From a virus (Duplodnaviria; Heunggongvirae; Uroviricota; Caudoviricetes): a DNA stretch of 34,883 nucleotides. A model generated the notes under the pieces. The model saw only the letters and a program-made list of their open reading frames with translations. It did not search any database and was not told where the DNA came from. Below are positions 3,174 through 32,926 of the stretch, in pieces (within the stretch, counting starts at the first letter, position 1; each line of letters begins with the position of its first letter). The position numbers and the translations under genes are program-made. The stretch lies in the IMG/VR virus record IMGVR_UViG_2706794664_000015. One strand, written 5' to 3'.

Positions 3174-3445
3174 GTATTCGTATTGAAATTGGCGAACGTT
3201 ATGTCGTTACCAGTGACAGCTTCCAGTTTATTCTCCACGAGAAAAAGAGAGCGGAAAGCGGTAAAAACGCCGGTCAGGAATGGCTGGCGGTGGTTGGTTA
3301 TTACCCGAAATTAAGCCAGCTCGTTTCCGGCCTGATGCATCACGATATTCTGACCGGAAGCGCAAAGTCTTTTGCTGATTTAAACGCGCAGGTTGAGCAA
3401 CTCAGCAAGCGTTGTTCAGAGGCTTTTGGCTCATATGGCCGTTAA
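3170..3445 (+). CDS. Small hypothetical protein (P2 orf83-like position)
   Basis: 91-aa ORF, overlapping neighbours on both sides, directly upstream of A. Confidence 0.5.
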   Translation: MSIRIEIGERYVVTSDSFQFILHEKKRAESGKNAGQEWLAVVGYYPKLSQLVSGLMHHDILTGSAKSFADLNAQVEQLSKRCSEAFGSYGR

Positions 3446-5501
3446 AGCCTCCGGGCGTTTTGTCCCTCCGTCAGCATTTGCTGCAGGCACCGGTAAGGCG
3501 TTTACCGGTGCTTATGCATGGAACGCGCCACGCGAGGCTGTCGGGCGCGAAAGACCCCTTACACGTGACGAGATGCGTCAGGTGCAAGGTGTTTTATCCA
3601 CGATTAACCGCCTGCCTTACTTTTTGCGCTCGCTGTTTACGTCACGCTATGACTACATCCGGCGCAATAAAAGCCCGGTGCACGGGTTTTATTTCCTCAC
3701 ATCCACTTTTCAGCGTCGTTTATGGCCGCGCATTGAGCGTGTGAATCAGCGCCATGAAATGAACACCGACGCGTCGATGCTGTTTCTGGCTGAGCGTGAC
3801 CACTATGCGCGCCTGCCGGGAATGAATGACAAGGAGCTGAAAAAGTTTGCCGCCCGTATCTCATCGCAGCTTTTCATGATGTATGAGGAACTCAGCGATG
3901 CCTGGGTGGATGCGCATGGCGAAAAAGAATCGCTGTTTACGGATGAGGCGCAGGCTCACCTCTATGGTCATGTTGCTGGCGCTGCACGTGCTTTCAATAT
4001 TTCCCCTCTCTACTGGAAAAAATACCGTAAAGGACAGATGACCACGAGGCAGGCATATTCTGCCATTGCCCGTCTGTTTAACGATGAGTGGTGGATTAGT
4101 CAGCTTAAAGGCCAGCGTATGCGCTGGCATGAGGCGTTACTGATTGCTGTCGGGGAGGTCAATAAAGACCGTTCTCCTTATGCCAGTAAACATGCCATTC
4201 GTGATGTGCGTGCACGCCGCCAGGCAAATCTGGAATTTCTTAAATCGTGTGATCTCGAAAACAGGGAAACAGGCGAGCGCATCGACCTTATCAGTAAGGT
4301 GATGGGCAGTATTTCTAATCCTGAAATTCGCCGGATGGAGCTGATGAACACCATTGCCGGTATTGAGCGTTACGCCGCCGCAGAAGGTGATGTGGGGATG
4401 TTTATCACGCTGACCGCGCCGTCAAAGTATCACCCGACACGTCAGGTTGGAAAAGGCGAAAGTAAAACCGTCCAGCTAAATCACGGCTGGAACGATGAGG
4501 CATTTAATCCAAAGGATGCGCAGCGTTATCTCTGCCGTATCTGGAGCCTGATGCGCACGGCATTCAAGGATAATGATTTACAGGTCTACGGTTTGCGAGT
4601 CGTCGAGCCACACCACGACGGAACGCCGCACTGGCATATGATGCTTTTTTGTAATCCACGCCAGCGTAACCAGATTATCGAAATCATGCGTCGCTACGCG
4701 CTCAAAGAGGATGGCGACGAAAGAGGAGCTGCGCGAAACCGTTTTCAGGCAAAACATCTTAATCGGGGCGGTGCTGCGGGGTATATCGCGAAATACATCT
4801 CAAAAAATATCGACGGCTATGCACTGGATGGGCAGCTCGATAACGATAGCGGCAGACCGCTGAAAGATACTGCCGCGGCTGTTACCGCATGGGCGTCAAC
4901 GTGGCGCATTCCGCAATTTAAAACGGTTGGCCTGCCGACAATGGGGGCTTACCGTGAACTACGCAAATTGCCTCGCGGCGTCAGCATTGCTGATGAGTTT
5001 GACGAGCGCGTCGAGGCTGCACGCGCCGCCGCAGACAGTGGTGATTTTGCGCTGTATATCAGCGCGCAGGGTGGGGCAAATGTCCCGCGCGATTGTCAGA
5101 CTGTCAGGGTCGCCCGTAGTCCGTCGGATGAAGTTAACGAGTACGAGGAAGAAGTCGAGAGAGTGGTCGGCATTTACGCGCCGCATCTCGGCGCGCGTCA
5201 TATTCATATCACCAGAACGACGGACTGGCGCATTGTTCCGAAAGTGCCGGTCGTTGAGCCTTTGACTTTAAAAAGCGGCATCGCCGCGCCTCGGAGTCCT
5301 GTCAATAACTGTGGAAAGCTCACTGGTGGTGATACTTCGTTACCGGCTCCCACACCTTCTGAGCACGCCGCAGCAGTGCTTAATCTGGTAGATGACGGTG
5401 TTATCGAATGGAATGACCCGGAGGTTGTGAGGGCGCTCAGAGGTGCATTAAAACACGGACTGAGAAGACCAACCGTCAGCAAAGAAACGGAAGCCCGTTA
5501 A
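3435..5501 (+). CDS. A: Rolling-circle replication initiator A (P2 gpA-like), apparently truncated at the C-terminus by a frameshift
   Basis: ATG at 3435 (MAVKASGRF...) matches P2 gpA N-terminus as recalled; 688 aa here versus about 761 aa for gpA; homology appears to continue in another frame in ORF 5549..5731. Confidence 0.85.
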   Translation: MAVKASGRFVPPSAFAAGTGKAFTGAYAWNAPREAVGRERPLTRDEMRQVQGVLSTINRLPYFLRSLFTSRYDYIRRNKSPVHGFYFLTSTFQRRLWPRIERVNQRHEMNTDASMLFLAERDHYARLPGMNDKELKKFAARISSQLFMMYEELSDAWVDAHGEKESLFTDEAQAHLYGHVAGAARAFNISPLYWKKYRKGQMTTRQAYSAIARLFNDEWWISQLKGQRMRWHEALLIAVGEVNKDRSPYASKHAIRDVRARRQANLEFLKSCDLENRETGERIDLISKVMGSISNPEIRRMELMNTIAGIERYAAAEGDVGMFITLTAPSKYHPTRQVGKGESKTVQLNHGWNDEAFNPKDAQRYLCRIWSLMRTAFKDNDLQVYGLRVVEPHHDGTPHWHMMLFCNPRQRNQIIEIMRRYALKEDGDERGAARNRFQAKHLNRGGAAGYIAKYISKNIDGYALDGQLDNDSGRPLKDTAAAVTAWASTWRIPQFKTVGLPTMGAYRELRKLPRGVSIADEFDERVEAARAAADSGDFALYISAQGGANVPRDCQTVRVARSPSDEVNEYEEEVERVVGIYAPHLGARHIHITRTTDWRIVPKVPVVEPLTLKSGIAAPRSPVNNCGKLTGGDTSLPAPTPSEHAAAVLNLVDDGVIEWNDPEVVRALRGALKHGLRRPTVSKETEAR

Positions 5502-5548
5502 AACCGCATGAAATAGCGCCATCGGCCAGACTGACCCGGTCGGAACGA

Positions 5549-5731
5549 ATGCAAATTACCCGTATCCGCGTTGACCTTGCTCAGAACGGTATCAGGCCGC
5601 AGCGATGGGAGCTTGAGGTGCTGGCGCGTGGGGCAACCGTAAATTATGACGGGAAAAAATTCACTTACCCGCTCGCTGATGAGTGGTCGGGATTCTCAAC
5701 AGTATTAGAGTCAAACTCAGTGAAGCGTTAA
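5549..5731 (+). pseudogene. A: Out-of-frame 3' remnant of gene A
   Basis: 60-aa ORF in a different frame directly downstream of A; its reading frame continues upstream without stop to about 5453, overlapping the A frame; combined span 3435..5731 gives about 764 codons, the canonical gpA length. Confidence 0.6.
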
Positions 5732-5817
5732 CTCAATAAATATGAGTTTATAAGTTAGGCCTCGAGATTTTGTAGAAAGGGATGTATACTGAGTATCGTA
5801 TAGATTTGGAGTGAGTG

Positions 5818-6840
5818 ATGACTGTAAAGGTGATAGACCTTTTTTGTGGTGCTGGCGGATTAACTCATGGTTTGCAGCTTGCGGGGCTTGATGTCGTTGC
5901 AGGCATTGACCTTGAGGGGGAATGTAGGTTTCCCTATGAAAGAAACAATAAATCTAAGTTTATTGAGCAAGATATCGCTAAAGTAACAAAAGAGGAACTG
6001 CTGAGGCTTTATGGTGATGCGTCTGTAAAAGTATTGGCAGGATGCGCACCTTGCCAACCTTTTTCAAAATATACTCAAGGAAAAGATAAGGCTGATGATA
6101 AAAAATGGCCTCTTCTTTATGAGTTCGAACGTTTAATTCGCGAAGTATCTCCAGAAATCGTAACAATGGAGAACGTTCCTGATGTAACTAAACATAAAGT
6201 TTATAATGATTTTTATAATTCATTGTTAAAGTTGGGCTATTATGTTTGGGCGTCTAAGATTGATTGTGTCGAATATGGAATCCCACAAAACCGTTCCCGT
6301 CATGTATTGTTGGCCTCAAAATTGGGGGCGATTGAGTTAGTAAAACGTGACGATGTTATTTTGAAAACAGTTAGAGATGCAATAGGAAATCTTCCTCCAT
6401 TAGAAGATGGCCAAACAGATCCAAATGATATATTACATAGAGCCAGTAAATTAAATCCGATTAATAAAAAAAGAATTATACACTCTGTTCCTGGTGGTAC
6501 ATGGAAGGACTGGCCGAAAGAGTTGGTTGCCGCTTGTCATATGAAATCCAGCGGTAAAGGGTATGCTAGTGTATATGGGCGCATGTCTTGGGATAAGCCA
6601 AGTCCAACAATTACAACTCTTTGTTATGGTTTCGGGAATGGGCGTTTTGGACATCCAGAACAGCATAGAGCGATTTCTCTTAGAGAGGCTGCTTTATTGC
6701 AAACTTTCCCGATGGATTATATTTTTGTAGAAGACAAAAACAAGTTTGTTATAAGAAGTATTGGGAAAATGATAGGTAATGCTGTTCCTGTGGAACTAGG
6801 AAAAGCAATTGGGCAATCAATCAAGAACCATTTAGAATGA
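5818..6840 (+). CDS. DNA (cytosine-5)-methyltransferase
   Basis: Motif I FCGAGG, motif IV PCQPFS, motif VI ENV, motif VIII QNRSRHV; ATG at 5818 with GGAG 6 nt upstream; AT-rich relative to the phage backbone; lies in the tin/old slot. Confidence 0.9.
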   Translation: MTVKVIDLFCGAGGLTHGLQLAGLDVVAGIDLEGECRFPYERNNKSKFIEQDIAKVTKEELLRLYGDASVKVLAGCAPCQPFSKYTQGKDKADDKKWPLLYEFERLIREVSPEIVTMENVPDVTKHKVYNDFYNSLLKLGYYVWASKIDCVEYGIPQNRSRHVLLASKLGAIELVKRDDVILKTVRDAIGNLPPLEDGQTDPNDILHRASKLNPINKKRIIHSVPGGTWKDWPKELVAACHMKSSGKGYASVYGRMSWDKPSPTITTLCYGFGNGRFGHPEQHRAISLREAALLQTFPMDYIFVEDKNKFVIRSIGKMIGNAVPVELGKAIGQSIKNHLE

Positions 6841-6846
6841 TAAAAT

Positions 6847-6863
6847 GGCCTGCTTTACAGGCC
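6847..6863. terminator. Bidirectional stem-loop between convergent genes
   Basis: GGCCTG (6847-6852) / CAGGCC (6858-6863) stem with 5-nt loop, flanked by A/T runs, in the 29-bp gap between the MTase stop and the HEPN-like gene stop. Confidence 0.5.
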
Positions 6864-6869
6864 TTATAA

Positions 6870-7550
6870 CTATTGTTCTAAATATTCATTATTATTTATA
6901 TAGTGCTCTATATTATTCACGATAGCATCAAGATAGGCGATTACTTCTAATGAAATATTCTCTAAGTCCTGATATGAAACATTTTTTCCAATCTCAGCAA
7001 ATGATACATTGCCATGAGATAAATCATTACGATGTTGTTTAACAGTGGCTAATTTTTCACCATGTTTAGTGTGAGTGTAATCGGAATGTGTAGAAAAACC
7101 ATATATTTTCGATTTTTCTTTGATTTCCTCTCTATCAATATTTCCTGAGAATATTTTCTTTTTGTTGAACGTGCCATAAGATATACCGCAAGATATACCT
7201 TTGGTAAGGTGATTAACTAAACTTTCAACATTTACAGATTCATTTTTTAATCTTTTTAATATTTCTGACCTGAGATTTTTCCTGAGTTTGTCAAATTCTA
7301 CGTTTCTATCATAAATAGTCTCATGAATAAGGCAGATAGCTTCTCTCATTGTTGATTCAATGAGGTTATATAACAGTATATATACTGCTCCCTTTAGAGT
7401 TTTTCGTGATTGAGCAGTAATGGAGAACTTATGTTCTTTATCATCAGCTGATATCAGTTCTGCACCGGCATACTCAATAAATTTCAAAAGATCCAAATAG
7501 GCCAAGATCTCTCCTGACCTTTCGTCAAAATCCTCACGAAAACGATCCAT
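6870..7550 (-). CDS. HEPN-like protein (Rx4H motif), second gene of a two-gene cargo operon
   Basis: 226-aa ORF; ATG (7548-7550) lies 1 nt from the upstream gene's stop (7552-7554); C-terminal KQHRNDLSHG fits the HEPN Rx4-6H motif; AT-rich. Confidence 0.65.
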   Translation of the reverse strand: MDRFREDFDERSGEILAYLDLLKFIEYAGAELISADDKEHKFSITAQSRKTLKGAVYILLYNLIESTMREAICLIHETIYDRNVEFDKLRKNLRSEILKRLKNESVNVESLVNHLTKGISCGISYGTFNKKKIFSGNIDREEIKEKSKIYGFSTHSDYTHTKHGEKLATVKQHRNDLSHGNVSFAEIGKNVSYQDLENISLEVIAYLDAIVNNIEHYINNNEYLEQ

Positions 7551-7551
7551 G

Positions 7552-8694
7552 TTAATCCTCTAATAATTTATCCCGAACATATTCAATTCGTTCAATTACC
7601 TTCACGCGACTATTAGCTCCGTCGGAAGTGGTCAATCGTTTGAATTCTTCTGAGCTTAGCCAATCTAAGTTCTTGGGAACAAGGTCAGGGACTTCACGTA
7701 ATGCAAGTGCTGCGCCAACAGCGAGAGATTCGAATCTAACTCGAGGTGTAGATTTTGCAGTAATAGTTTTCTTGAATCCTGCTGGGAAATAGTTTTCAAC
7801 AAAAGATAGAACATTAGCAAACTCTTGTTTCATTGAGTTTTGTTTAGTTTCGTCTATATCTCGATTTTCTGACATATAGTCATTTAGAAAATCCCGTACG
7901 GAATGATCAAAGTTCTTGTACTTATCTACGTAGGCAAAGAATCTTAATGTAAATTCTAACCGTTCATCTCGTTTTTCTTTAGTCTGAGATAAAGGTGCTA
8001 ATTCTTTAAATTTAGGTATTGTTGAGCATGGCTTAATAACCTGTGTATATAAATTTGTTGAACCAAGTTCTGATCCTTTACGGACTTCCATATCTTTCAA
8101 TATATCGCTGCCAGAGTTAATACGCTCAAAAAGATCTCTACGGGTTTCTTCATTGCATTTAGAACTCAATTCTATAACGCGGACAGGAATTCTCATGAAA
8201 CGACGTTGACGTGATAATGGTAAATCTTGGAATTTGAAACCATTAAGGACGTCTAAAGATTTCAGGTCTTGTAAAACTAATTCATTTTGGATAAAAGCGT
8301 GTATAGTCCTAACTCGTTGTGAGCCATCAACAATCTCAATTCGCCCATCTAAATCGGGATCTTCGGAGAGAACATCTGCTATAAATATATATGGTATAGG
8401 AAAACCCAAAATCAAAGACTCTATCAATTTTGATTGTCTTTTTTCACTCCAAACAAAATCCCTTTGATAATCAGGAACAAAGAGTTCGTTAGTATCATCC
8501 TCTAATCCGTTATGATACTTATTAACTAATAACTCAACGGTAAATTCTTTGGTCTCAAAATCCACATCCTTTTGCTCAGCACGAATTTGCTCTTCAGCGT
8601 TTTGCTTTATCACCTCTAGCTGAGCAAGCAACTCTGCTCTTTTCTTGGCATTATCTTCATTTTCTAGTTGAGATTTTAAATCAATAATGTCCAT
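7552..8694 (-). CDS. DUF262 / ParB-like (GmrS-type N-terminal domain) protein, first gene of the cargo operon
   Basis: 380 aa from ATG 8692-8694 (AAGGGA RBS upstream; ORF track extends to a TTG at 8712); PDYQRDFVW and DGSQR motifs characteristic of DUF262; AT-rich. Confidence 0.8.
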   Translation of the reverse strand: MDIIDLKSQLENEDNAKKRAELLAQLEVIKQNAEEQIRAEQKDVDFETKEFTVELLVNKYHNGLEDDTNELFVPDYQRDFVWSEKRQSKLIESLILGFPIPYIFIADVLSEDPDLDGRIEIVDGSQRVRTIHAFIQNELVLQDLKSLDVLNGFKFQDLPLSRQRRFMRIPVRVIELSSKCNEETRRDLFERINSGSDILKDMEVRKGSELGSTNLYTQVIKPCSTIPKFKELAPLSQTKEKRDERLEFTLRFFAYVDKYKNFDHSVRDFLNDYMSENRDIDETKQNSMKQEFANVLSFVENYFPAGFKKTITAKSTPRVRFESLAVGAALALREVPDLVPKNLDWLSSEEFKRLTTSDGANSRVKVIERIEYVRDKLLED

Positions 8695-8879
8695 GTCTAG
8701 TTCCCTTAACAAGTGTTAAAAATTGAAGCGGATAGCATACCGCATAGATCATGAAAAATGCCATCATGTGCATGGATTTGCATGCGTCAGAAGTCGCTTT
8801 TATTGTTAGTTATCACTAGCGCTGGCGTGCTCTTGGAGTGTTCATGCAACTGCATTAAAACCGCCCCATGAAGCGGGCG

Positions 8880-20480: not shown

Positions 20481-20925
20481 GTTTAAGCGTTTTGAAGACA
20501 GGCTGACCGGACTTATTGAGTCGCTGTCACCGTCAGGGCGTCGGCGACTGAGCGCCGAACTGGCGAAACGTCTGCGTCAGAGTCAGCAGCGTCGGGTGAT
20601 GGCACAGAAAGCCCCGGACGGCACACCCTACGCACCACGCCAGCAGCAGAGCGCCAGAAAAAAGACCGGTCGCGTTAAGCGAAAAATGTTTGCGAAACTT
20701 ATCANNNNNNNNNNNNNNNNNNNNNNNNNNNNNNNNNNNNNNNNNNNNNNNNNNNNNNNNNNNNNNNNNNNNNNNNNNNNNNNNNNNNNNNNNNNNNNNN
20801 NNNNNNNNNNNNNNNNNNNNNNNNNNNNNNNNNNNNNNNNNNNNNNNNNNNNNNNNNNNNNNNNNNNNNNNNNNNNNNNNNNNNNNNNNNNNNNNNNNNN
20901 NNNNNNNNNNNNNNNNNNNNNNNNN
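20473..20925 (+). CDS. S: Tail completion protein (P2 gpS-like)
   Basis: ATG 20473 overlapping the R stop; N-terminal 77 aa visible, remainder in N-mask 20705-20968; end estimated from a 150-aa gpS. Confidence 0.65.
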
Positions 20926-20996
20926 NNNNNNNNNNNNNNNNNNNNNNNNNNNNNNNNNNNNNNNNNNNGGTATGACCCGGCGGCATCCTTCCCGTT

Positions 20997-21632
20997 ATGA
21001 ACACTCTCGCAAATATTCAGGAACTCGCGCGCGCACTGCGCAACATGATCCGCACCGGCATTATCGTCGAAACCGACCTTAATGCCGGTCGCTGCCGTGT
21101 GCAGACCGGCGGCATGTGCACCGACTGGCTTCAGTGGCTGACCCATCGCGCCGGACGTTCGCGCACATGGTGGGCACCTTCCGTGGGGGAACAGGTGCTG
21201 ATTCTGGCCGTAGGCGGTGAACTCGACACGGCGTTCGTTCTGCCGGGGATTTATTCCGGTGATAACCCCGCGCCGTCTGCGTCGGCGGATGCCCTGCATA
21301 TCCGTTTCCCTGACGGGGCGGTGATTGAGTATGAACCTGAAACCAGTGCACTCACGGTAAGCGGAATTAAAACGGCCAGCGTGACGGCTTCTGATTCTGT
21401 TACTGCCACGGTGCCGGTGGTCACGGTGAAAGCATCAACCCGCGTCACTCTGGACACGCCGGAGGTGGTCTNNNNNNNNNNNNNNNNNNNNNNNNNNNNN
21501 NNNNNNNNNNNNNNNNNNNNNNNNNNNNNNNNNNNNNNNNNNNNNNNNNNNNNNNNNNNNNNNNNNNNNNNNNNNNNNNNNNNNNNNNNNNNNNNNNNNN
21601 NNNNNNNNNNNNNNNNNNNNNNNNNNNNNNNN
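20997..21632 (+). CDS. V: Baseplate assembly protein (P2 gpV-like)
   Basis: ATG 20997; 158 aa visible before N-mask 21472-21736; end estimated from a 211-aa gpV. Confidence 0.7.
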
Positions 21633-21647
21633 NNNNNNNNNNNNNNN

Positions 21648-21995
21648 NNNNNNNNNNNNNNNNNNNNNNNNNNNNNNNNNNNNNNNNNNNNNNNNNNNNN
21701 NNNNNNNNNNNNNNNNNNNNNNNNNNNNNNNNNNNNGCGCACGCCGGTCGGCTCACGGGTGATGCGTCGTGATTACGGCTCGTTGCTGGCGTCAATGATT
21801 GACCAGCCGCAGACCCCGGCGCTTGAGTTGCAGATTAAGGTCGCCTGTTACATGGCCGTGCTGAAATGGGAAGCCCGCGTCACCCTGTCATCCGTCACCA
21901 CGGCGCGCAGCTTTGACGGGCGAATGACGGTCACGTTAACCGGCCAGCACAACGACACCGGCCAGCCACTTTCGTTAACCATCCCTGTGAGTTGA
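21648..21995 (+). CDS. W: Baseplate wedge protein (P2 gpW-like)
   Basis: C-terminal 86 aa visible after the mask, ending at 21995; start is masked and estimated from a 115-aa gpW. Confidence 0.65.
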   Translation, partial: XXXXXXXXXXXXXXXXXXXXXXXXXXXXXXRTPVGSRVMRRDYGSLLASMIDQPQTPALELQIKVACYMAVLKWEARVTLSSVTTARSFDGRMTVTLTGQHNDTGQPLSLTIPVS

Positions 21996-22908: not shown

Positions 22909-23440
22909 TTCGCGACTGCTGCCGACCGGCTCATCACCGCTTGAAGTTGCCGCCGCAAAAGCCTGTGCGGAAATTGAAAAAACGCCGGTCAGGATTCGTG
23001 AACTGTGGAACCCGGATACCTGTCCGGCAAATCTGCTGCCGTGGCTGGCGTGGGCGTTTTCGGTCGACAGGTGGGATGAAAAGTGGCCGGAAGCGACAAA
23101 ACGCGCCGTTATCCGCGATGNNNNNNNNNNNNNNNNNNNNNNNNNNNNNNNNNNNNNNNNNNNNNNNNNNNNNNNNNNNNNNNNNNNNNNNNNNNNNNNN
23201 NNNNNNNNNNNNNNNNNNNNNNNNNNNNNNNNNNNNNNNNNNNNNNNNNNNNNNNNNNNNNNNNNNNNNNNNNNNNNNNNNNNNNNNNNNNNNNNNNNNN
23301 NNNNNNNNNNNNNNNNNNNNNNNNNNNNNNNNNNNNNNNNNNNNNNNNNNNNNNNNNNNNNNNNNNNNNNNNNTCCCGGCTACCTGTTCGCCGGTGGTGT
23401 GGCTTACGACGGCGATGTAATTACGGTTTACCCCGGATAA
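22901..23440 (+). CDS. I: Baseplate protein (P2 gpI-like)
   Basis: ATG 22901 overlapping the J end; interrupted by N-mask 23121-23373; ends at 23440 just before H. Confidence 0.7.
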   Translation: MSDSRLLPTGSSPLEVAAAKACAEIEKTPVRIRELWNPDTCPANLLPWLAWAFSVDRWDEKWPEATKRAVIRDXXXXXXXXXXXXXXXXXXXXXXXXXXXXXXXXXXXXXXXXXXXXXXXXXXXXXXXXXXXXXXXXXXXXXXXXXXXXXXXXXXXXXPGYLFAGGVAYDGDVITVYPG

Positions 23441-26414: not shown

Positions 26415-27833
26415 CTACATCGGGCTCTTATATGGGGAATGAGAGTTTTTGAAACGCGGTTCTTCATGCTTCGGACTGTAAATTCTTGCATGATTATCTA
26501 TCACAACTTTACTTCCAAGAATATCTCGAGCTTCTCCTAACGACCACACAGTAGAAAGATCATTAGTCAAATTTCGATAGAGAGCACGAAACCCCTTGGG
26601 TTTTTTAAGATCATATAAGAAATCAGGAACTTTAACTTTAAAATTAAAGGTCGGTAGTTTCGGAAGGGAATTAATAGCCGCAACAGTATTGTATACATGT
26701 ACAAGCTTAGTTACAGGTACACCTTGTCTAGTCTTGAGCCCATACTTAGTTCGAATATAATCTGATTCTTTCGATACTTCAGTAAGCAATGCTCTTACTG
26801 ACTTATTAGCTTGAGGCAATTCATTTTCATCAAACAAGCGCTTTATTTCTCGCATTTTCTCACGGGCCCTTACAAATTCGTTGTTGTCCCTTATGTTATA
26901 AGCAGCTTCAACAATACAACTTGGATCACCAGTTTCTTTTGCGAGCCATGCCGAAAATAAAGGAAGCGAAGTTGCTGTTGCTACAGCTTTACCACCAGAA
27001 TGAATATCAATGAGATCATGACTTAACGAAGTGGAAAAGTTTTCTACAATATGTTTAGCATAGTTAAAACCATACTGACAGTTTTGGCTTAAATATGTCT
27101 GTTGATACGCCTGACGTAATGGATATAAAAAAGTATCTGCTTGAAGGTACTTAGCTGTGAGAGAATAAAATACTGCCCGATTAGCCAGCCATACAAGCGA
27201 AGCCACGAATGCTTTGATTGCATCTGATGCTTCACCAGCAGATGTGCCATCCCCCCATTTTGCTCCGGGAACTTTGTACCCCTTGCGAATAGGGTTGCCA
27301 AATCGATCGAGAAGTTCAACATCGCCATTTGTTCTATTACCAGACTCAGCAGCATCACGCAGTTCTGAAAAAATGGCAGCAGCAATGTTACCATATTTTT
27401 CAAACTCCTTACCTCCATCAGATAAGTTCTTCAGTGTTAGATGATAAACACTTGAACTAATGTCCCATGTACATATGATATGTGTCTGAAGAAGTTCAAT
27501 TAGTTTTTTAAAATCGTCATTAACAAATGTTCCACCACGAATTTTAGGTTTCAATGCATCAGATATTTTTTTTGCTTCACTTTCAATTTCATCCAACCCA
27601 TATTGTGCTTTATCAAGAAATAATATCTCTCTGAAACTTGAAATCCTACTCCCACGGTACTCTGGAATATAATCATCAACCGCGATAACGTGATCATAGA
27701 ACAAAATAGACTGTATATAGTTCTCAAATGCTATTATGTCTGTATCTACTGAGTCCTTCGATCTTGTTTTTACTTTCCCCTCGATTCTTTGGACTGCAGT
27801 TAGAGTTGAATTATCAATCAGTGCGTATGTCAT
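26415..27833 (-). CDS. Uncharacterised 472-aa cargo protein in the Z/fun slot (candidate defense gene)
   Basis: ATG 27831-27833 with AAGGAA RBS; AT-rich; antisense to the late operon between G and FI; no catalytic or NTP-binding motif recognised by eye. Confidence 0.8.
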   Translation of the reverse strand: MTYALIDNSTLTAVQRIEGKVKTRSKDSVDTDIIAFENYIQSILFYDHVIAVDDYIPEYRGSRISSFREILFLDKAQYGLDEIESEAKKISDALKPKIRGGTFVNDDFKKLIELLQTHIICTWDISSSVYHLTLKNLSDGGKEFEKYGNIAAAIFSELRDAAESGNRTNGDVELLDRFGNPIRKGYKVPGAKWGDGTSAGEASDAIKAFVASLVWLANRAVFYSLTAKYLQADTFLYPLRQAYQQTYLSQNCQYGFNYAKHIVENFSTSLSHDLIDIHSGGKAVATATSLPLFSAWLAKETGDPSCIVEAAYNIRDNNEFVRAREKMREIKRLFDENELPQANKSVRALLTEVSKESDYIRTKYGLKTRQGVPVTKLVHVYNTVAAINSLPKLPTFNFKVKVPDFLYDLKKPKGFRALYRNLTNDLSTVWSLGEARDILGSKVVIDNHARIYSPKHEEPRFKNSHSPYKSPM

Positions 27834-30449: not shown

Positions 30450-32926
30450 CAATGTAAAATTACAGGTATTGCTCAGGGCTGTTGACCAGGCGTCCCGCCC
30501 GTTTAAATCCATCCGCAGAGCGAGTAAGTTGCTGTCGGGGGATATCCGGGAAACACAAAAATCACTGCGCGAGCTGAACGGTCACGCATCCCGTATTGAG
30601 GGATTCCGCAAGACCAGTGCACAGCTCGCCGTGACTGGTCATGCACTTGAAAAGGCACGGCAGGAGGCCGAAGCCCTTGCCACACAGTTTAAAAACACCG
30701 AACGCCCGACCCGTGCTCAGGCGAAAGTGCTGGAATCCGCAAAGCGTGCGGCGGAGGACTTACAGGCGAAATATAACCGCCTGACAGATTCCGTTAAACG
30801 CCAGCAGCGGGAACTGGCCGCTGTGGGAATTAATACCCGCAATCTTGCACATGATGAGCAGGGACTGAAAAACCGTATCAGTGAAACCACCGCCCAGCTT
30901 AACCGGCAGCGTGACGCGCTGGCGCGTGTCAGTGCGCAACAGGCAAAACTTAACGCAGTCAAACAGCGTTATCAGGCCGGAAAGGAACTGGCCGGAAATA
31001 TGGCCTCAGTGGGCGCTGCCGGTGTGGGGATTGCTGCTGCGGGAACGATAGCCGGAGTTAAGCTGCTGATGCCAGGTTATGAGTTTGCGCAGAAAAACTC
31101 AGAATTGCAGGCTGTGCTCGGTGTGGCAAAAGACTCCGCCGAAATGGCTGCACTCCGCAAGCAGGCGCGCCAGCTCGGTGACAACACCGCCGCCTCAGCG
31201 GATGATGCGGCCGGTGCACAGATTATCATTGCGAAAGCGGGTGGGGATGTTGATGCCATTCAGGCGGCAACGCCGGTCACGCTGAATATGGCGCTGGCGA
31301 ACCGCCGCACAATGGAAGAAAACGCCGCCCTGCTGATGGGGATGAAATCCGCCTTTCAGCTTTCAAACGATAAGGTCGCTCATATCGGGGATGTTCTCTC
31401 CATGACGATGAACAAAACCGCCGCTGATTTTGACGGCNNNNNNNNNNNNNNNNNNNNNNNNNNNNNNNNNNNNNNNNNNNNNNNNNNNNNNNNNNNNNNN
31501 NNNNNNNNNNNNNNNNNNNNNNNNNNNNNNNNNNNNNNNNNNNNNNNNNNNNNNNNNNNNNNNNNNNNNNNNNNNNNNNNNNNNNNNNNNNNNNNNNNNN
31601 NNNNNNNNNNNNNNNNNNNNNNNNNNNNNNNNNNNNNNNNNNNNNNNNNNNNNNNNNNNNNNNNNNNNNNNNNNNNNNNNNNNNNNNNNNNNNNNNNNNN
31701 NNNNNNNNNNAGAAATGCAGGCCAGCTTTGAGAAAAACCGGCTCGGTACTGCCCAGCAGGCCGAATACATGAAAACCATTTTCGGGGAGGAGGCCAGCTC
31801 AGCCGCCGCTGTGCTGATGACTGCCGCGTCAACCGGAAAGCTGGACAAACTGACCGCTGCGTTTAAAGCCTCAGACGGGAAGACCGCAGAGCTGGTAAAT
31901 ATCATGCAGGACAACCTCGGCGGTGACTTTAAGGAGTTTCAGTCCGCTTATGAGGCGGTGGGGACAGACCTGTTTGACCAGCAGGAAGGCGCGCTACGTA
32001 AGCTCACGCAGACGGCCACAAAGTATGTGTTAAAACTCGACGGCTGGGTACAGAAAAACAAATCACTGGCGTCAACCATTGGCCTCATTGCCGGTGGCGC
32101 GCTGGCGCTGACTGGCATCATCGGTGCAATTGGTCTTGTAGCCTGGCCGGTTATCACCGGCATCAATGCCATCATCGCGGCAGCAGGCGCAATGGGGGCA
32201 ATCTTCACGACGGTTGGTAGTGCCGTTATGACGGCCATCGGGGCGATTAGCTGGCCGGTTGTGGCTGTGGTGGCCGCCATTGTCGCCGGGGCGTTGCTTA
32301 TCCGTAAATNNNNNNNNNNNNNNNNNNNNNNNNNNNNNNNNNNNNNNNNNNNNNNNNNNNNNNNNNNNNNNNNNNNNNNNNNNNNNNNNNNNNNNNNNNN
32401 NNNNNNNNNNNNNNNNNNNNNNNNNNNNNNNNNNNNNNNNNNNNNNNNNNNNNNNNNNNNNNNNNNNNNNNNNNNNNNNNNNNNNNNNNNNNNNNNNNNN
32501 NNNNNNNNNNNNNNNNNNNNNNNNNNNNNNNNNNNNNNNNNNNNNNNNNNNNNNNNNNNNNNNNNNNNNNTTAATGCGTTCAACAAATTGCGCAGCGGCA
32601 TTGACTGGGTACTGGAAAAGCTCGGGGTCATCAACAAAGAGTCAGACACACTTGACCAGACCGCCGCCAGAACTCATGCCGCCACGTATGGCACCGGTGA
32701 TTATATTCCGGCGACCAGCTCTTATGCAGGCTATCAGGCTTATCAGCCGGTCACGGCACCGGCTGGCCGCTCTTATGTGGACCAGAGTAAAAACGAATAT
32801 CACATCAGCCTGACGGGTGGTACTGCACCGGGGACACAGCTTGACCGCCAGTTACAGGATGCGCTCGAAAAATACGAGCGGGATAAACGTGCGCGCGCCC
32901 GTGCCAGCATGATGCATGACGGTTAA
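30442..32926 (+). CDS. T: Tail tape measure protein (P2 gpT-like)
   Basis: About 827 codons; coiled-coil-rich N-terminus, Gly/Ala-rich hydrophobic segment; interrupted by N-masks 31438-31710 and 32310-32570, with reading frame differing between unmasked segments. Confidence 0.85.

Follow-up and report, generated by a model that had tools for sequence, protein, structure and literature searches.

Several described systems join a DUF262 protein or a HEPN protein to the recognition of foreign DNA. HEPN RNases were proposed in 2013 to form an arm of restriction-modification (R-M) systems, and the same paper lists a "MAE_28990: operon with ParB nuclease and DNA methylase" (Anantharaman et al. 2013, Biol Direct 8:15, Table 1). 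PD-T4-2 of Escherichia coli ECOR65, an operon of a DUF262 gene followed by a HEPN gene, acts against T4 both natively and when cloned in K-12, and HHpred places its HEPN protein in HEPN_RiboL-PSP and HEPN_MAE_28990 (Vassallo et al. 2022, Nat Microbiol). In Menshen (NsnA-NsnB-NsnC; Millman 2022; Li et al. 2025) the protein NsnA was described as a ParB-DUF262 plus ParBDB protein and as the DNA sensor (Li et al. 2025, NAR). GmrSD, BrxU and SspE follow a logic of modification reading, the modification being glucosylated hydroxymethylcytosine (glc-hmC), 5-methylcytosine (m5C) or phosphorothioate, and BrxU and SspE are known from published work to read DNA modifications. Here, a stretch of 34,883 nt from a virus of the Caudoviricetes (IMG/VR record IMGVR_UViG_2706794664_000015, hereafter the window) was analysed, in which a DUF262 gene (A), a HEPN gene (B) and a DNA methyltransferase gene (M) lie next to each other. 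With moderate confidence, these genes are read as a modification-linked three-gene defence cassette of sensor, RNase and writer, carried as cargo in the hotspot between gpA and cos of a P2-like prophage. The cassette, with a size of about 2.9 kb for M, B and A together, consists of the following features:

7552-8694, minus strand: A, 380 amino acids, with a long N-terminal helix, a ParB-DUF262 domain binding nucleoside triphosphates (NTP) and a C-terminal helical ParBDB-like domain; predicted sensor of DNA or its modification
7548-7554, minus strand: translational-coupling junction of A and B, as read in the sequence (TAA of A at 7554-7552, a single nucleotide at 7551, ATG of B at 7550-7548)
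6870-7550, minus strand: B, 226 amino acids, HEPN protein of the MAE_28990 family with the motif R174-N-D-L-S-H179-G; predicted RNase effector
5818-6840, plus strand: M, C5-cytosine DNA methyltransferase (PF00145), 340 amino acids when started at the ATG at 5818 (alternative in-frame GTG at 5815)

The cassette is an instance of the operon predicted in 2013, and its architecture is not new. All three components listed by Anantharaman and coworkers are present: a HEPN protein of the MAE_28990 family (PF18737, named after the clade) with an Rx4-6H motif, a DUF262 gene 1 nt upstream of it and a linked m5C methyltransferase; the R-M-linked reading is shared as well. The difference lies in A, which the paper calls a 'ParB nuclease', whereas in the window it comprises NTP-binding and DNA-binding domains only and resembles NsnA. 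In the literature no characterisation of the three-gene system was found beyond the 2013 prediction, Rousset 2022 and DefensePredictor 2026 included. What is added here is a quantified linkage of the three genes, a sister clade that lacks the methylase, the finding that M was lost repeatedly, and the location of the cassette in phage hotspots. An earlier reading of the window (hereafter the original prediction) had presented A and B as a candidate anti-phage pair that could not be assigned to a named system from the sequence alone. PADLOC indeed calls no system here, but the operon was listed in 2013, PD-T4-2 is a relative, and the names 'MAE_28990/MAE_18760 family HEPN-like nuclease' and 'DUF262 domain-containing protein' are already in use in RefSeq. 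A match to an already characterised system, which the original prediction had named as a reason to abandon its view, was thus found for the architecture and for the phenotype of a relative, and not for the mechanism.

M is part of the module and not a chance neighbour, because its linkage to A and B persists across rearrangement and its divergence is correlated with that of A. For the analysis of the linkage, an alignment of B was used in a scan with one genome per species, which gave 381 relatives, and the best 80 of these 381 loci were kept. The presence of M was scored in 77 loci of the tree, taken from the 80 and from loci fetched earlier, for which a full-length A and room for M were required. 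A is located directly upstream of B in all of the best 80 species-level loci (80/80) and in 29 of 29 viral contigs from IMG/VR, and an orthologous M (50-89% identity) adjoins the pair in 42 of the 77 scorable loci and in each of the 28 viral contigs that could be evaluated. The three genes are found together in Gammaproteobacteria, Cyanobacteria, Acidobacteria and a metagenome-assembled genome (MAG) of the Bacteroidales, and they occur in three gene orders, namely A->B<-M, which is the commonest, A->B->M (locus L047) and M->A->B (loci L091, L094, L133 and L134). The pairwise divergences of A and M are correlated with a Mantel r of 0.94, a value reached in 0 of 999 permutations, and on a neighbour-joining tree of A the state of M changes just three times. 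The original prediction had taken the unit to consist of two genes; it missed the convergent m5C methyltransferase at 5818-6840, although this gene is conserved together with the pair.

The cassette moves as one unit between unrelated mobile elements. Its phage contexts are P2-like prophages, lambdoid prophages of Klebsiella and Moraxella phages. Among 5,426 complete E. coli genomes it is present in 9, always between gpA and the portal gene, and it is also found in P2-like prophages of Salmonella, while in Klebsiella its site is in a lambdoid prophage, with the replication genes on one side and the nin/Q region on the other. In most of the IMG/VR loci the cassette is flanked by the portal gene and gpA of a member of the Peduoviridae, these phages being highly diverged themselves, with gpA at 30-98% identity; homologous A-B pairs accordingly recur in the gpA-portal slot of other P2-like prophages, a recurrence for which the original prediction had asked. 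Without phage context, the cassette is found at 40-60% identity on a Vibrio chromosome, in cyanobacteria and on metagenomic contigs. B is truncated in a Klebsiella copy (L005), and in Microcoleus (L086, 5337-5870) A is truncated to 177 amino acids and carries DGAER in place of DGxQR.

In the window, A and B are both intact, with 97-98% identity over the full length to RefSeq relatives and 100% identity to one IMG/VR prophage. The start of A is the ATG at 8694; an in-frame TTG further upstream at 8712 would give an alternative protein of 386 amino acids, and the RefSeq relatives are annotated with 380. At the junction the sequence reads GAG GAT TAA c ATG, and the end of A contains a Shine-Dalgarno-like GAGGA located 6-10 nt 5′ of the start of B. 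The spacing between A and B is kept at -8 to +10 nt in the relatives that were read, so the junction is tight or overlapping throughout. The GC contents of A (0.36), B (0.32) and M (0.39) are below that of the P2 backbone (0.54-0.55). The description of the pair in the original prediction, i.e. two minus-strand genes with stop and start 1 nt apart, tightly coupled and AT-rich in comparison with the phage backbone, agrees with the open reading frames at 7552-8694 and 6870-7550, with the conserved spacing and with the GC values.

Protein A matches the Pfam family GmrSD_N/DUF262 (PF03235) with an E-value (E) of 7.7e-26. In an alignment of 30 homologues, down to 43% identity, the positions P74, D75, Y76, Q77, R78, W82, D123, G124, Q126, R127, F189, R191, N193 and G195 are invariant, which includes all three of the motifs QRxxxW (Q77, R78, W82), DGxQR and FxxxN (F189, N193). 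The two motifs from which the original prediction had assigned A to DUF262, PDYQRDFVW (residues 74-82) and DGSQR (residues 123-127), are the invariant ones, and the profile search confirms the assignment. In the Pfam search GmrSD_N was the only domain found in A, with no nuclease domain, neither DUF1524 nor HNH, and B is therefore the only recognisable effector. Among the defence models of PADLOC, the best match of A is NsnA of Menshen (E 1.6e-54, 184 bits), with residues 25-374 aligned to positions 23-376 of 385 in the model, followed by PD-T4-2_A (E 2.4e-35, 120 bits), with residues 73-372 aligned to most of the model, and every relative tested behaves alike. Additionally, the DUF262 region of A matches weakly the 'Type II restriction enzyme' model PDLC03418 (REase_II) with E 9e-6. 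The predicted structure of A, with a predicted local distance difference test (pLDDT) score of 83, consists of a long N-terminal helix, a ParB-like DUF262 domain and a C-terminal domain made of helices only. By sequence profile as well as by fold, the solved proteins nearest to A are BrxU, SspE and a DUF262 protein of a DndI system.

Protein B matches HEPN_MAE_28990 (PF18737) with E 5.8e-29 and 102 bits against a cut-off of 26.8, and more weakly HEPN_RiboL-PSP (E 8e-9). The stretch KQHRNDLSHG is present, and across 30 homologues, down to 34% identity, R174, N175, L177, H179 and G180 are invariant and D176 is nearly so. The predicted structure of B has the HEPN fold, with a four-helix core and the Rx4-6H motif where the last helix of this core begins. 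The assignment of the second protein to HEPN in the original prediction is consequently upheld by the profile, by the invariant RNDLxHG motif and by the structural model.

M is transcribed convergently to B, with 29 nt between the two stop codons, and lies in the same direction as gpA, about 87 nt downstream of it. It matches PF00145 over its full length with E 3.4e-58 and also TIGR00675 (dcm), and its translation shows the catalytic motifs FCGAGG, PCQ, ENV, QNRSR and GNAVP. Its relatives in the PDB are M.HaeIII and M.HhaI, to which the alignment covers the catalytic core only and not the target-recognition domain. Relatives of M with 53-60% identity occur without a DUF262 or HEPN neighbour on two IMG/VR contigs (L145, 3998-7569, and L147, 3962-8229); in one of the two the relative adjoins a Vsr mismatch endonuclease and a GHKL ATPase of 714 amino acids, in the other an SNF2-type helicase of 1,056 amino acids. 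This pattern fits a role of the M clade as a modular self-marking partner that may be common to several restriction-like arms.

A related system with a demonstrated function is PD-T4-2, which like the window encodes a DUF262 plus HEPN operon in E. coli; A matches its A model, as given above, but scores higher with NsnA. In contrast to the window, the cloned unit of PD-T4-2 contains no methylase, and the HHpred spans of its HEPN protein end at about residue 163, whereas B has 226 amino acids. By the PADLOC models and the published description, membership in PD-T4-2 was rejected, as B has no match to PD-T4-2_B at E<=1 and a methylase is linked. A tblastn search of A against a phage collection identified other DUF262 plus HEPN modules in phage P2_4B2, in Moraxella Mcat phages and in Klebsiella phage ST16-OXA48phi5.4; by PADLOC none of these modules scores as PD-T4-2, and the B proteins of P2_4B2, Mcat28 and ST16-OXA48phi5.4 have no PADLOC match at E<=0.01. 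As a side observation, the module of ST16-OXA48phi5.4 (L105, 2863-4766), a member of the Peduoviridae, consists of an NsnA-like DUF262 protein of 407 amino acids and a RiboL-PSP-type HEPN protein of 220 amino acids, has no methylase and occupies a slot between the tail fibre and tail genes.

With Menshen, the cassette shares a full-length NsnA-type protein with ParB-DUF262 and ParBDB domains and the motifs QRxxxW, DGxQR and FxxxN, as well as the proposed logic of a DNA sensor feeding an RNase effector. Unlike in Menshen, the direct partner of A is a HEPN protein, and the locus includes a linked methyltransferase. Menshen itself was ruled out, as neither an NsnB ABC-ATPase nor an open reading frame for NsnC, with its inPIN and nuclease domains, is present in 5500-9100. 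With GmrSD, BrxU and SspE, A has in common the N-terminal DUF262 NTPase fold with DGxQR followed by a helical DNA-binding domain; in contrast to them it lacks the DUF1524 His-Me nuclease, has a length of 380 instead of 560-820 amino acids, and is accompanied by a separate HEPN protein as effector, for which the predicted target is RNA rather than DNA. A GmrSD-type Type IV enzyme was ruled out by the lack of a DUF1524 domain in A. The original prediction had suggested a GmrSD-like sensor with HEPN in place of HNH/DUF1524, of which the domain logic was fair, in view of the missing DUF1524 and the BrxU, SspE and DndI folds, but the closest profile is NsnA and not GmrSD. Like the Ssp and Dnd systems, the system of the window carries its own writer, M. 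PrrC-EcoPrrI and RloC, which are HEPN anticodon nucleases connected with R-M or the sensing of DNA damage, resemble it in that a HEPN RNase is tied to a DNA modification or restriction module as an abortive-infection arm; they differ from it in their ABC-ATPase regulators and Type I R-M partner, the places of which are taken here by a DUF262 protein and a Type II-like m5C methylase. When compared with Type II R-M systems, the motifs of M are intact, while the endonuclease side is limited to the weak match of A to PDLC03418, with no known nuclease fold.

A role of the pair in defence is plausible, as a DUF262 plus HEPN system, PD-T4-2, has been validated. The view of the original prediction that the pair is a defence or abortive-infection module stands to this extent, and the hotspot location speaks for it too, whereas the unit it described was incomplete and its novelty was overstated. 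In the proposed mechanism, M would write a sequence-specific 5-methylcytosine mark on resident DNA, i.e. on host and prophage, and as it is located in line with the early gpA operon, it would probably mark replicating phage DNA too. A, which belongs to the sensor class of NsnA, would bind DNA and read the mark of M using NTP; made in fixed proportion with B via translational coupling, it would control B. When A meets a non-self modification state, B would be released or activated and would cut RNA (tRNA, rRNA or mRNA), upon which translation would stop and the infection would abort or growth would be arrested. The polarity of the mark could follow R-M logic, with methylation protecting self, or SspE logic, with methylated self DNA licensing the sensor. 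Strict R-M logic, in which unmethylated DNA is foreign, would explain the tight linkage and the convergent layout, but it is strained by the tolerated losses of M and by the two-gene PD-T4-2; an SspE-like logic would tolerate such losses. Tentatively, and with clearly less confidence than for the cassette as such, we propose an R-M-like immunity with RNA cleavage as its output, in which an m5C writer is combined with a ParB/DUF262 NTP-dependent reader that gates the HEPN RNase directly and does not itself cut DNA; an epigenetic distinction of self and non-self on DNA would in this way lead to a shutdown of translation. The methylase-less clade and PD-T4-2 would then be derived versions with another trigger.

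Several points weigh against the reading as a modification-linked cassette. We infer every biochemical step, the kind of RNA that is cut and the polarity of the mark, and the RNase, NTPase and methylase activities are predictions from sequence. No match to B was obtained with the PADLOC models, even at E<=1, and a scan of 8695-8860 revealed no strong sigma-70 consensus 5′ of A. Moreover, the cloned region of PD-T4-2 (1824 bp, with open reading frames of 1540 bp) contains no methylase and still protects (Vassallo et al. 2022). On the tree of A, a deep loss of M founds a large cyanobacterial clade with A and B only, which comprises 31 of the 77 loci (32 with L035). Recent decay of M next to an intact A-B pair is seen in Dolichospermum, where one MAG (L034) keeps a remnant of M of 83 residues (6716-6964) and its sister (L035) keeps none, and in phage P2_4B2 (L102, 2021-3041), where M is frameshifted and A and B are intact. 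The identity of P2_4B2 to the window is 72-76% for M, 45% for A and 30% for B, and a similar conservation of M over A and B was found in a few other loci; the co-evolution of A and M is therefore not uniform. These comparisons suggest that the sensor-effector pair can diverge or be swapped against a constant methylase type. Since A and B have remained intact through at least three losses of M, strict R-M logic, under which the loss of M is lethal, is hard to uphold, unless a host methylase covers the same site.

These losses bear in opposite ways on two other explanations, to both of which only a low probability is given. One, proposed by Anantharaman et al. (2013), is R-M of the classical type with a toxin in reserve, in which A would be a DNA-cleaving 'ParB nuclease' acting with M, and B would be held inactive by A until phage anti-restriction or DNA damage disables the first line, as in PrrC-EcoPrrI. 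The loss of M with A intact is difficult for this explanation, as a solitary active restriction endonuclease is not normally tolerated. The weak match to PDLC03418 suggests that REBASE-derived sets hold A-like putative restriction endonucleases, but Pfam recognises only GmrSD_N in A and no nuclease domain; in GmrSD, BrxU and SspE, DUF262 serves as NTPase or sensor, and cleavage is performed by a separate DUF1524 domain, which is missing from A. The operon description and the PrrC analogy given in the 2013 paper, together with the conservation and convergent orientation of M, as in many Type II systems, speak for this explanation.

The other, which we also consider improbable and to a similar degree, is a self-contained pair of A and B, a Type IV-like or infection-sensing abortive-infection system like PD-T4-2, with M as a co-travelling orphan methylase. 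A would in this case recognise features of phage DNA, for example hypermodified cytosines, intermediates of replication or DNA ends, and switch on B, while M might serve the mobile element in anti-restriction or epigenetically and would take no part in the discrimination of self by A. The absence of M from 32 of the 77 scorable species-level loci, in which the pairs look intact, speaks for this explanation, and PD-T4-2, cloned as two genes, defends against T4, the DNA of which has modified cytosines; in both phage contexts, moreover, M is aligned with the early operon of the phage, a position often seen for orphan methylases of phages. Hitch-hiking does not, however, predict a linkage of M that extends across phyla, non-phage chromosomal sites and three gene orders with r=0.94, and all evaluable phage-borne copies (28/28) keep M. 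An addiction or stabilisation module, i.e. a toxin-antitoxin or selfish R-M unit that kills cassette-losing cells and has only a secondary anti-phage effect, appears very unlikely, for although the cassette is intact in a prophage with a portal gene broken by an IS21-family element and a frameshifted gpA, moves as a unit between unrelated mobile elements and encodes a HEPN protein, a common kind of toxin, the decay of M next to intact A and B argues against M as an essential antidote, and the location in a hotspot for defence cargo and the PD-T4-2 phenotype favour defence, the two roles not being exclusive.

Outside the coding regions of the cassette and at its borders, the following features were identified:

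6847-6863, no strand assigned: GC-rich hairpin in the spacer between M and B, from a terminator scan (fold -18.1 kcal/mol, z -4.3, 0/200 shuffles as stable)
8695-8860, minus strand: non-coding region upstream of A and B, with a Shine-Dalgarno-like AAGGGA 8 nt before the ATG; the region is shared with locus L001
8861-8880, minus strand: hairpin resembling a terminator, from the terminator scan, directly next to cos and upstream of A and B
8880-8898, plus strand: cohesive-end sequence GGCGAGGCGGGGAAAGCAC, which bounds the cargo slot (one exact match, 0 expected by chance) and which we take to be P2 cos
9240-11877, minus strand: IS21-family element with istA (10111-11778), istB (9339-10337), imperfect terminal repeats and the 5-bp target duplication CCCAT

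The hairpin at 6847-6863 is a probable bidirectional terminator common to M and B, the promoter of A and B is presumably located within 8695-8860, and the hairpin at 8861-8880 would shield A and B from read-through of the late Q-P operon. A and B are located between the replication endonuclease gene gpA on one side and cos and the portal gene on the other. This is the tin/old slot of P2, a hotspot for defence cargo (Vassallo et al. 2022; Rousset et al. 2022), and the neighbouring genes bear out the position from gpA to cos that the original prediction had given.

The prophage of the window is decaying or defective, with the cassette intact. The IS21-family element interrupts the portal gene Q, of which a C-terminal fragment is left at 9066-9239, and the prophage should therefore be unable to package. 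In gpA (about 3434-5731) a 1-nt deletion is present at about position 5490, where the window reads GACC-AACCG and two related prophages read CGCCAAACCG. The resulting frameshift leads to a premature stop at 5499-5501, and an open reading frame of 60 amino acids at 5549-5731 corresponds to the displaced C-terminus; gpA may be a genuine pseudogene, or the deletion may have arisen in the assembly. Another prophage (L106, IMGVR_UViG_2558860170_000011, 32,198 bp) has A, B and M with 100% protein identity and full-length gpA and portal genes, and apparently represents the prophage of the window in its intact form.

Within the late genes the GC content alternates between 0.25-0.30 and 0.57. AT-rich insertions were rejected as the cause of this alternation: the P2 late genes contain ten masked runs of N, which add up to 2,630 nt and produce it as an artefact. 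These runs also yield spurious long open reading frames that are not biological, e.g. at 12182-14599. The masked runs are located at:

12230-12495, 12603-12892, 16068-16325, 16520-16769 and 17607-17856
20705-20968, 21472-21736, 23121-23373, 31438-31710 and 32310-32570

The second cargo hotspot of P2, the fun/Z slot from tail-fibre assembly to tail sheath, contains an open reading frame of 472 amino acids (26415-27833, minus strand, GC 0.38). It has no match in Pfam or PADLOC and is a candidate cargo or defence gene; the fun/Z slot of a related prophage carries other genes, including one for a DUF2971 protein.

The combination of DUF262 and HEPN is, as PD-T4-2, a validated defence architecture of E. 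coli, and its methylase-linked form provides a handle on what the sensor reads. As the cassette includes its own m5C writer, the mark, the preference of the reader and the removal of M are all tractable with standard methods. The models of PADLOC v2 would not call the cassette, which is nevertheless found in about 380 genomes at species level and in many prophages of P2-like and lambdoid type. The cassette is ordinary as an architecture, but a good, tractable entry to the mechanism. If methylation does gate the RNase, restriction-modification logic would gain a new kind of output, and the frequent embedding of HEPN genes in R-M loci, an association noted in 2013, would be explained.

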